IMG/VR virus record: IMGVR_UViG_2579778535_000007
From: a virus
Taxonomy: Duplodnaviria > Heunggongvirae > Uroviricota > Caudoviricetes
DNA: 21,210 nucleotides
Reading direction: 5' to 3' (one strand)
In this document: piece by piece, positions 3,821 to 5,277 of the stretch
Layout: each line of letters opens with the position of its first letter
Position numbering within the stretch: the first letter of the stretch is position 1
The notes under the pieces: generated by a model
What the model was told of the DNA's origin: nothing
Seen by the model: only the letters and a program-made list of their open reading frames with translations
Database searches by the model: none
Position numbers and translations under genes: made by a program

Positions 3821-3914
3821 GGTCGCAGAATTTGCTACGACGGCGAAACTATAAGCCTGAACGATTAAAAGGTCAATATGATGCGAAAAGATAGCATTCG
3901 CGACTTAAAAATAC

Positions 3915-3931
3915 AAATTTATTAGAGCAGA
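3915..3931 (-). promoter_or_regulatory. C1 repressor operator (15 of 17 match), upstream of the immI-like operon (Op51-like)
   Basis: Minus strand reads TCTGCTCTAATAAATTT against consensus ATTGCTCTAATAAATTT. It sits in the AT-rich divergent promoter region. Confidence 0.5.
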
Positions 3932-4212
3932 TTAGTGTCGTGCAATAGATATATTATTTGTGATGAAAAATAATGCAGAGGGATATTGTAACTTTAAGAT
4001 GGATATCAATAGTCGATACATAAATTAAGTTAGCAATAAACTATTAACTTAAGAAATAATGCAGATGGTGAACTTGTCTCTGACTTTTCAGCTATACACA
4101 ATAAGTTAGGGATAGCTTATAAAAAGTTGATTAATTGATATAAGTCAATGGGAGTATTCTTGTTTACTTTCCGTTCTCGTGGTAACTTCTCGCCGGTTTT
4201 TGTTTTTCTGGG

Positions 4213-4734
4213 ATGATTCTTATGTCTAAAAAGTATACTTTATGCGCTCTTGTTGTATCTGCAATTCTTCTTTCTGGGTGTCAATCTAGCGGTGCTGATT
4301 ATGCTGCCGATGTTTATGATACCGCTCAATTGAATTCGAAGCAGGAAACAAAGACAGTCAATATTATCTCTGTGCTTCCAGCTAAAGTGAAAGTTGATAA
4401 TAAAGCTAATAAAGAAGCGGCACAGACATTTGGTGCGGTACTGGGAGCTGTTGCTGGGGGCGTTGCCGGTTATAATGTTAAAGGCACATCGACACTGGGT
4501 GCTGTAGCTGGCGGTACTGGTGGTGCGGCTCTTGGTGCAGCGGCTGGTTCTTTGGTTAGTGATAAAACAATTGTTGAAGGTGTTTCACTGACTTATAAAG
4601 AAGGAACTAAGGTGTTCACTTCAACTCAAGTTGGTAAAGCATGCCAGTTTACAACGGGGCTTGCTGTGCTTATTTCAACTAAAGATAATGAAACTCGAAT
4701 TCAGCCAAATGCTACTTGTCCAGAAAAGAAATAA
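4213..4734 (+). CDS. Outer-membrane lipoprotein, SlyB/PCP-like glycine-zipper family (173 aa)
   Basis: Signal peptide with lipobox LSGC (Gln at +2 suggests outer-membrane sorting). Long glycine zipper GAVLGAVAGGVAGYNVKGTSTLGAVAGGTGGAALGAAAGS. Overall layout parallels E. coli SlyB as recalled. About 42% GC, preceded by a roughly 370-bp AT-rich region. Confidence 0.7.
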   Translation: MILMSKKYTLCALVVSAILLSGCQSSGADYAADVYDTAQLNSKQETKTVNIISVLPAKVKVDNKANKEAAQTFGAVLGAVAGGVAGYNVKGTSTLGAVAGGTGGAALGAAAGSLVSDKTIVEGVSLTYKEGTKVFTSTQVGKACQFTTGLAVLISTKDNETRIQPNATCPEKK

Positions 4735-4737
4735 TTT

Positions 4738-5277
4738 ATGAATAAAATTATTTTATTTCTAATCTTTTCTACGTTTAGTGTAGGCACTGCCTTGGCTAAC
4801 TCGTTGCAAAGTCAAATTGCTGCTATTGCTCAAGCGGAAAATGAAGGGCGAGCTAAAGAGCAGCAAGCTGAGGATGCCAGAAAAGAACTTATTCGCCAAC
4901 AAGCACAAGCTGAACGTATTAGAAGAGAAAAAGCAGCATCTGCCGCTGCTGCACGCGAAAAACAGCGTGTTGCTGCAGAAAATGAACGTAGAGCGAAACG
5001 AGAAGCCGAGCTAGCAAATGACAAGAAGCGAGATCAAGCTTATGAGGATGAGCTTCGCAAGCTGCAACTCGAAAGCATGAAACTCGAACTGCAAGCAAAA
5101 GCGGCTCGTGTCCAGCGAGAAAACGATTTTATAGAGCAGGAGTTGAAGGAGAGAGCAGCTAAGACAGATGTAATTCAGTCTGAGGCTGATGCAAATAGAA
5201 ATATTTCTACAGGAAGTAAAGATTTACTGCAAAGCGAAGGAAAAGCTAGAGAGAAGAAAGCTAGCAGTTGGTGGTAG
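4738..5277 (+). CDS. Secreted or periplasmic coiled-coil protein of unknown function (179 aa)
   Basis: N-terminal signal peptide (MNKIILFLIFSTFSVGTALA, cleavage likely after ALA). The remainder is highly charged A/E/K/R/Q-rich predicted coiled coil ending in SWW. Starts 3 nt after the lipoprotein stop, so probably co-transcribed. Confidence 0.6.
   Translation: MNKIILFLIFSTFSVGTALANSLQSQIAAIAQAENEGRAKEQQAEDARKELIRQQAQAERIRREKAASAAAAREKQRVAAENERRAKREAELANDKKRDQAYEDELRKLQLESMKLELQAKAARVQRENDFIEQELKERAAKTDVIQSEADANRNISTGSKDLLQSEGKAREKKASSWW

Follow-up and report, generated by a model that had tools for sequence, protein, structure and literature searches.

The stretch analyzed here, referred to as the window, comprises 21,210 nucleotides of the IMG/VR virus record IMGVR_UViG_2579778535_000007 (Caudoviricetes) and is assigned by sequence identity to a P7-type punavirus (positions 3400-5400 are 99.9% identical to phage phi456 and 99.5% identical to P7). 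It carries two plus-strand open reading frames (ORFs) which, judged by homology, are a paralog of the E. coli core operon yfgH-yfgI. ORF1 is predicted to encode a YfgH-like outer-membrane lipoprotein of the SlyB family and ORF2 a YfgI-like exported helical protein. Both lie in an exchangeable cassette, which takes up the interval filled in P1 by the sim genes, and they belong to a mobile lineage of this gene pair. The ORFs correspond to P7 upf50.5 and upf50.0, respectively. The P7 record has carried both since 2003 with the labels "outer membrane lipoprotein" and "membrane protein", each with function unknown.

The two genes are tightly coupled, with 3 nt between the stop codon of ORF1 and the ATG of ORF2, and the pair diverges from the c4-icd-ant operon. 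This agrees with the initial annotation, which was made from the DNA letters and had described two coupled genes diverging from the immunity promoter region. The GC content is 42.6% for the operon, 31% for the spacer upstream of it and 48.2% for the three downstream tail genes; the low GC content claimed initially for the operon was thus recovered, whereas the tail genes measured slightly less than the value of about 50% given for them. The GC content at third codon positions (GC3) is 0.24 in ORF1, 0.31 in ORF2 and 0.47-0.57 in the neighboring genes.

The second ATG of ORF1, at 4222, is the likelier start codon, because a GGGA Shine-Dalgarno motif is found 8 nt ahead of it and RefSeq uses the same start. 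The encoded protein contains the lipobox L-S-G-C with Cys23 and, at position +2, Gln24; since no Asp occupies position +2, sorting to the outer membrane is predicted. Over the full length, 67% amino acid (aa) identity to K-12 YfgH was found. A family profile built from 42 homologs matched the SlyB chain 7ojf_A in the PDB with an expectation value (E) of 8.4e-10 (positions 9-162 against 6-153), and Foldseek, searched with the ORF1 structure model, returned SlyB as the sole significant PDB match (E 1.2e-6, probability 1.0, template modeling (TM) score 0.48/0.56). Both searches bear out the SlyB-like glycine-zipper lipoprotein proposed initially. Invariant in the 42 homologs are Cys23, G74, G78, G82, G104, G108, Cys144 and Cys169. 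The glycine-zipper helical hairpin spans approximately residues 70-113 (model helices at 64-88 and 94-113), its tip at residues 85-103 is the most variable segment of the mature protein, and the invariant pair Cys144/Cys169 sits in the C-terminal beta domain. ORF1 stayed below every Pfam cutoff, including that of the glycine-zipper family PF05433 (18.2 bits vs. 24.2), hence the support for the zipper was taken from the SlyB profile match. Every sequence-level feature used to judge membership was found, and the product is classified on this basis as a full-length member of the SlyB/YfgH family.

Some databases label these genes differently. ORF1 matched PHROG 1277 with E 2e-94, and this group and several RefSeq phage records (NC_050152, NC_042128, NC_031129 and NC_019445, the last at L020 2355-2870) carry the label "DNA methyltransferase", while the phi456 record names the gene pair "tail tip protein" and "minor tail protein". 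Such labels conflict with the lipobox, the SlyB homology, the paralogy to yfgH and the distribution of the genes and were therefore treated as annotation errors; they look like errors that were propagated between records.

For ORF2, a signal peptide of 20 aa was predicted, with cleavage between ALA and NS, and the P7 annotation places the cleavage at the same point. The protein matched Pfam DUF5384 (PF17358) with 147.8 bits at a cutoff of 25 (E 3e-43, profile positions 4-145 of 145) and shares 47% aa identity with K-12 YfgI over the full length. AlphaFold2 modeled a single continuous helix over residues 3-178 with a predicted local distance difference test (pLDDT) value of 87. The mature protein has 159 residues, 41% of them charged. 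A hydrophobic heptad core is confined to approximately residues 91-135, and residues 21-97 are rich in Ala, Glu, Arg, Lys and Gln with 4-11% large hydrophobic residues. Thus, the almost entirely charged coiled coil described initially is borne out in part, namely for the charge, whereas the extent of the coiled coil is smaller. Conserved are the two ends, namely the N-terminal SLQxQ..A.A.AE and the C-terminal residues 91-179 ending in SWW (or SWF in the family), whereas the N-terminal half has diverged from YfgI. A sequence search with ORF2 against the PDB gave nothing meaningful.

In a DNA search, a locus of 69% identity annotated as yfgH-yfgI was detected in 5420 of 5426 complete E. coli genomes; in a K-12 derivative it is located between yfgG and guaA. 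The phage pair and YfgH-YfgI (b2505-b2506) have in common the two genes, their order and tight spacing, the lipobox, the glycine zipper, Cys144/Cys169, the signal peptide, the helix length and the aromatic C-terminal end. The phage copy differs in that it resides on a phage-plasmid in an exchangeable slot, belongs to a mobile lineage of low GC3 and has an unrelated upstream region; furthermore, it has diverged in the hairpin tip of ORF1 and in the N-terminal half of ORF2. A recent capture from the E. coli chromosome was considered and rejected, as the DNA identity is only 69%, the GC3 is much lower and the phage copy groups with other mobile copies.

YfgH has been reported to stabilize the outer membrane: its loss sensitizes cells to sodium dodecyl sulfate (SDS) and ethylenediaminetetraacetic acid (EDTA), its overexpression rescues the depletion of outer-membrane biogenesis genes, it pulls down BamA, LptD, OmpF/C/A, LamB and TonB-dependent receptors, and SlyB-like rings have been predicted for it (bioRxiv 10.64898/2025.12.22.696046). 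In Salmonella Typhi, the yfgH/yfgI orthologs are regulated by SdiA (PMC11619404). SlyB itself (PDB 7OJF/7OJG) is a stress-induced lipoprotein, which forms rings of 11-13 subunits round BamA, other outer-membrane proteins or lipid nanodomains. Shared with ORF1 are the lipobox, the N-terminal strand, the glycine-zipper hairpin, the C-terminal beta domain and homology over the full length; the identity to the phage protein is only about 24%, and rings of the latter are predicted by homology. To our knowledge, slyB has no DUF5384 partner gene.

The boundaries of the cassette were determined with blastn against P1, Ro157c2YLVW and a P1-like plasmid of E. albertii; homology is lost at 3929/3930, at the end of the operator Op(c4) (left junction), and is regained at 5301-5306, at the start of the late promoter LPsit (right junction). 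The initial annotation had placed the P1 locus sim beside c4 and had proposed a slot for variable cargo. Indeed, simA, simB and simC fill exactly this interval in P1. The interval contains two other proteins, gp35 and gp34, in Ro157c2YLVW, an allele of the gene pair with 88% aa identity plus extra genes in the E. albertii plasmid, and an allele with 84% aa identity together with a DUF559 protein in IncY plasmids. The contents recorded at this position are thus of at least four kinds, and the sim region is among the eight variable, low-GC regions of P1-like phage-plasmids (PMC9603915). The P1 sim genes are dispensable for plaque formation (PMC10695390). A signal peptide was predicted for all alternative products translated (SimA, SimB, SimC and Ro157c2YLVW gp35 and gp34).

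Among the complete E. coli genomes, 597 contained at least part of the genes flanking the cassette and 164 contained the cassette in near-intact form, which corresponds to about 3% of all complete genomes. Virion or morphogenesis proteins conserved at this position, a case raised in the initial annotation, do not fit this distribution (about 164 of about 600 flank-bearing genomes). The cassette is conserved at ≥ 99% in about 165 E. coli replicons, 163 plasmids in PLSDB have a lipoprotein with ≥ 99% identity, and the cassette is absent from P1 and most P1-like elements.

A few further observations were made in this slot. In the E. albertii plasmid (L007 4032-8298), it holds a small membrane protein, the pair of the 88% allele, a fragment of the Ro157-type gp35, a YfjT-family protein and a 389-aa SH3_3 protein; in the E. 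coli IncY plasmid pLR-25_1 (L151 3510-6148), the pair of the 84% allele is accompanied by the DUF559 protein. P1 SimA (52 aa; L002 5601-5759) is 93% identical to the first 41 residues of gp35 of Ro157c2YLVW, which is an exported protein of 215 aa (L005 3129-3776). By this comparison, P1 simA looks like the truncated remnant of a longer gp35-type gene after an exchange of cassettes.

The association of the two genes was assessed in 129 DUF5384 loci obtained from scans of a viral-contig collection and a collection with one genome per species. In 125 of the 129 loci, the DUF5384 gene is immediately preceded by a YfgH-like gene of the same strand, and the clear exceptions are contigs which start inside the pair. 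All 50 genome loci showed the pairing; they come from Enterobacterales (Xenorhabdus included), Pseudomonas, Haemophilus, Photobacterium, Tolumonas, Shewanella and Nitrosomonas. This frequency, together with the taxonomic spread, indicates that yfgH-yfgI is an old, near-obligate two-gene unit.

Homolog searches returned many intermediates at 60-89% identity. Besides the P1 slot, the pair was found at one end of integrated prophages whose tail genes are of the P2 type, where it adjoins genes for tail fibers or tail-fiber assembly on the one side and host genes on the other (two different sites in E. coli and one in Salmonella; one prophage-end protein is on record in 245 blocks of the collection searched). 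It was also detected in an island flanked by transposases and on plasmid-sized contigs of about 100 kb from Salmonella and Enterobacter. The latter (L018, L019) are listed as plasmid-sized contigs only and not typed as phage-plasmids, since the phage collection gave no match to them and PLSDB hardly any. The mobile copies of E. coli and Salmonella have a GC3 of 0.20-0.33, compared to 0.43 for chromosomal yfgH and 0.49 for chromosomal yfgI, and in an unbootstrapped neighbor-joining tree they group apart from the chromosomal clade of K-12 and E. albertii. Between the P7 copy and other mobile copies, the ratio of non-synonymous to synonymous substitution rates (dN/dS) is 0.06-0.11 at saturated synonymous divergence (dS > 1), which indicates that the genes are maintained by purifying selection. 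None of the mobile copies examined has lost the lipobox, the signal peptide, the invariant Cys pair or the C-terminal motif.

Several neighborhoods of such genes are worth recording. The record of phage TL-2011b (L020 1680-3425) and about 55 IMG/VR contigs of about 40 kb (L044-L099) end with the host genes pdeF-yfgG-yfgH-yfgI. Prophages of the TL-2011b type therefore integrate beside chromosomal yfgI, between yfgI and guaA. Integration at this site would allow yfgHI to be captured easily through imprecise excision; it also inflates the counts of "viral" DUF5384 genes. Among the E. coli prophages with the pair at one end (L013-L016), one contains a protein of about 424 aa with a PLDc_2 domain between the pair and the host junction, while in the others the pair directly abuts host yecD; such prophage-end regions may hold further accessory or defense genes. 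In the mobilizable 7.5-kb ColRNAI plasmid pYLMB10c of E. coli (L152 1947-4498), a YfgH-like glycine-zipper gene with 75% aa identity adjoins a phosphoethanolamine transferase gene and IS1; a DUF5384 partner is not annotated there.

Table 1. Features in and around the cassette (positions refer to the window).
Feature	Position	Strand	Basis and remarks
c4-icd-ant promoter, TTGACC-17-TATAGT	3876-3848	minus	consensus scan
C1 operator Op(c4)/Op51, aaatttattagagca	3915-3931	minus	P7 annotation, constant 101-nt offset
Exchangeable cargo cassette, ~1.37 kb	3930-5302	plus	blastn breakpoints; simABC interval in P1
AT-rich spacer (31% GC, 281 bp), presumed promoter region of the operon	3932-4212	plus	GC content; promoter inferred
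ORF1, YfgH-like outer-membrane lipoprotein, SlyB family (predicted)	4213-4734 (likely start 4222)	plus	ORF, homology; 173 aa from 4213
ORF2, YfgI-like exported protein, DUF5384 (predicted)	4738-5277	plus	Pfam, homology; 179 aa
Late promoter LPsit, start of the tail operon	5307-5326	plus	P7 annotation by offset
12-bp perfect inverted repeat, ctcgtagaatct / agattctacgag	5318-5351	plus	overlaps the -10 element of LPsit

In blastn, the spacer ahead of ORF1 showed no match to the sequences that precede other copies of the module. It contains a direct repeat, AAATAATGCAGA(G/T)GG, at 3968-3982 and 4054-4068 (86 bp apart), which could be a pair of regulator sites or the scar of a duplication. By eye, an extended -10 element (TGATATAAG, near 4137-4145) and a sigma-E-like GTAACTT (near 4182) were noticed; these candidates are listed without being claimed as promoters. 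Downstream of ORF2, the region 5278-5362 folds as RNA with -24.8 kcal/mol (z-score -4.4). The inverted repeat listed in Table 1 lies within the flank conserved among P1-like elements and no U-tract follows it; as RNA, it would presumably end the transcript of the cassette with a stable hairpin. At the right end of the window (20001-21000), the GC content drops to 0.30-0.39, which by the P7 offset corresponds to the cin / lydC / lydA region.

The module was compared with known exclusion, lysis and defense systems. P1 Sim agrees with it in the interval between Op(c4) and LPsit, the orientation, the signal peptides on all products and the dispensability for lytic growth. It differs in having no lipoprotein and no sequence similarity: the best blastp match to SimA, SimB or SimC had E 0.13, and blastn found no match between the cassettes. 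Of the contents of the slot, only Sim reportedly has a known exclusion phenotype, which is credited to Devlin 1982 and to Kliem and Dreiseikelmann 1989. No family of the PADLOC models matched either protein at E up to 1.

TraT of F-like plasmids (PDB 9FSM, a decamer) is likewise a lipoprotein of the outer membrane, anchored there by helices and bearing a beta-sandwich; it differs in its extracellular beta domain and in lacking a helical partner. Kinship was rejected, since the match to Pfam PF05818 reached 23.1 bits at a cutoff of 31, Foldseek aligned 9fsm_A with E 0.26 and a TM score of 0.20, and TraT did not appear in the PDB search with the family profile at E up to 10; the weak Pfam match probably reflects the Gly/Ala-rich membrane helices. 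TraT remains a useful analogy for lipoprotein rings turned to exclusion, as it is a ring-forming lipoprotein whose chromosomal-type gene was taken over by plasmids for this purpose (PMC11733297).

Cor of phi80 and N15 and Llp of T5 are, like the product predicted here, phage-encoded outer-membrane lipoproteins and protect the infected or lysogenic cell, but they are small single lipoproteins which block FhuA and have no membrane hairpin. Exclusion genes of the cor type are usually located at the prophage end beside tail-fiber genes, and other copies of the present module adjoin tail-fiber genes as cor does. Kinship to Cor was rejected, since the match to PHROG 1119 (E 0.022) covers only residues 10-54, which is the region of the signal peptide; a match to an Rz-like PHROG (E 0.038) was discarded for the same confinement to the signal peptide. 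Membership in the spanins (Rz/Rz1) was dismissed as well, given the cleavable signal peptide, the 150-aa SlyB homolog and the location of lydA/lydB/lydC elsewhere.

We favor, with some reserve, the explanation that the operon is an envelope moron, which is expressed in the lysogen and works like YfgH/YfgI. The lipoprotein would receive its lipid at Cys23 and travel to the outer membrane, where, as in its homologs SlyB and YfgH, the glycine-zipper hairpin would insert and rings would enclose and stabilize outer-membrane proteins or lipid patches. The partner would be exported to the periplasm as a rod-like helix of about 24 nm, if fully extended, and its conserved ends, chiefly the C-terminal 90 residues, would dock on the periplasmic domain of the lipoprotein or on another layer of the envelope. 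The conservation of the ends suggests docking at both of them, with a variable spacer in between. We infer expression in the lysogen from the position of the operon outside the late operon and divergent from the immunity promoters, from its replaceability and from its location among accessory genes. It would add a phage-controlled dose or variant of the stabilizer to the host copy, and the benefit under selection would be that the outer membrane of the lysogen is toughened or altered.

Several points weigh against this explanation. The consensus promoter scan of the spacer gave weak matches, no better than those in shuffled sequence (the only one being TAGATA-17-AATAAT at 3946-3974). The AlphaFold2 monomer of ORF1 is poor (pLDDT 55), hence ring formation is predicted from homology. 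Of YfgI, the sole reported phenotype is the nalidixic-acid sensitivity of a deletion mutant (PMC3536626); a literature search for "DUF5384" returned no paper, and the biochemical function of YfgI is without report. Finally, the host already carries yfgHI, which leaves the added value of a second copy unexplained.

A possible alternative, to which we assign a lower probability, is that the pair replaces Sim as a dedicated system for superinfection exclusion, directed at phages, colicins or conjugation, by sequestering or masking receptors or by blocking the passage of the tail tube or DNA. It would account for the exact use of the sim interval, for the signal peptides encoded in every alternative cassette and for the position of other copies beside tail-fiber genes at prophage ends. 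YfgH binds phage-receptor proteins (OmpA/C/F, LamB and TonB-dependent receptors), several diverged alleles occur in the P1 slot with the hairpin tip at 85-103 as the most variable part, and TraT offers a conceptual precedent (PMC11733297). Neither protein, however, has similarity to Sim, Cor or any PADLOC model, the dN/dS of 0.06-0.11 bears no sign of an arms race, and many Gammaproteobacteria carry the pair as a conserved chromosomal module without phage context. The receptor of P1 and P7 is the core of the lipopolysaccharide and not a protein. Masking of outer-membrane proteins would therefore spare relatives of the phage itself. Given the outer-membrane-stabilizing role reported for YfgH, a general fortification of the envelope is at least as likely as exclusion.

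Two other explanations are far less probable. A function in the lytic cycle, either as a spanin-like lysis pair or as a virion or morphogenesis accessory of the tail operon, might be suspected because an outer-membrane lipoprotein combined with a periplasmic helical protein superficially recalls Rz1/Rz, because the genes are immediately upstream of the late tail operon and because the GenBank record of phi456 uses tail labels; it is largely refuted already by the distribution, the cassette being absent from P1 and most P1-like elements. Besides, the cassette is upstream of LPsit and thus outside the late operon, the helical protein has a cleavable signal peptide instead of being anchored in a membrane, the lipoprotein, a SlyB homolog of 150 aa, is no short proline-rich o-spanin, and the homologs are chromosomal core genes. 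It is equally improbable that the pair is a functionless passenger, i.e., host DNA acquired by aberrant excision or recombination and carried neutrally. The integration of TL-2011b-type prophages beside yfgI would make such a capture mechanistically easy and the composition is foreign to the phage, but neutral carriage is at odds with the low dN/dS at saturated synonymous divergence, with the intact lipobox, signal peptide, Cys pair and C-terminal motif of the mobile copies examined, with the conservation at ≥ 99% in about 165 E. coli replicons and 163 PLSDB plasmids, and with the independent carriage by several unrelated elements.

As a more speculative proposal, which we regard as rather doubtful, the mobile yfgHI lineage might represent an unrecognized class of phage-encoded envelope shield, in which SlyB-type rings are braced by a rod spanning the periplasm. 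Rings and rod would sequester receptors or obstruct the passage of the tail tube or DNA, and temperate phages of several families would swap the module into accessory slots of the Sim or Cor type. If this were true, chromosomal yfgHI itself would be a device for envelope defense or envelope repair, and the phage copies would provide a handle on its mechanism.

Already on record were the genes, the fact that they resemble E. coli proteins and the variable nature of the sim region. Added here are the mobile yfgHI lineage, the obligate pairing and the finding that the pair recurs, under purifying selection, in temperate elements unrelated to each other, as well as the observation that the P1 slot, among the contents translated, always holds proteins predicted to be exported. 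Mobile elements have repeatedly selected the pair, at positions typical of genes for lysogenic conversion or exclusion. YfgH has only just been described as an outer-membrane stabilizer, and the phage copies show its near-obligate pairing with YfgI. An operon of 1.1 kb on a well-studied phage, located in a known exclusion slot, is a simple system for learning the function of the pair, and it could show whether SlyB-type rings act as a barrier to phages, colicins or host defenses. P1-like phage-plasmids often carry resistance genes in E. coli of animal and human origin; since the cassette is present in about 3% of complete genomes, a cargo which toughens the envelope could matter for the fitness of such strains.

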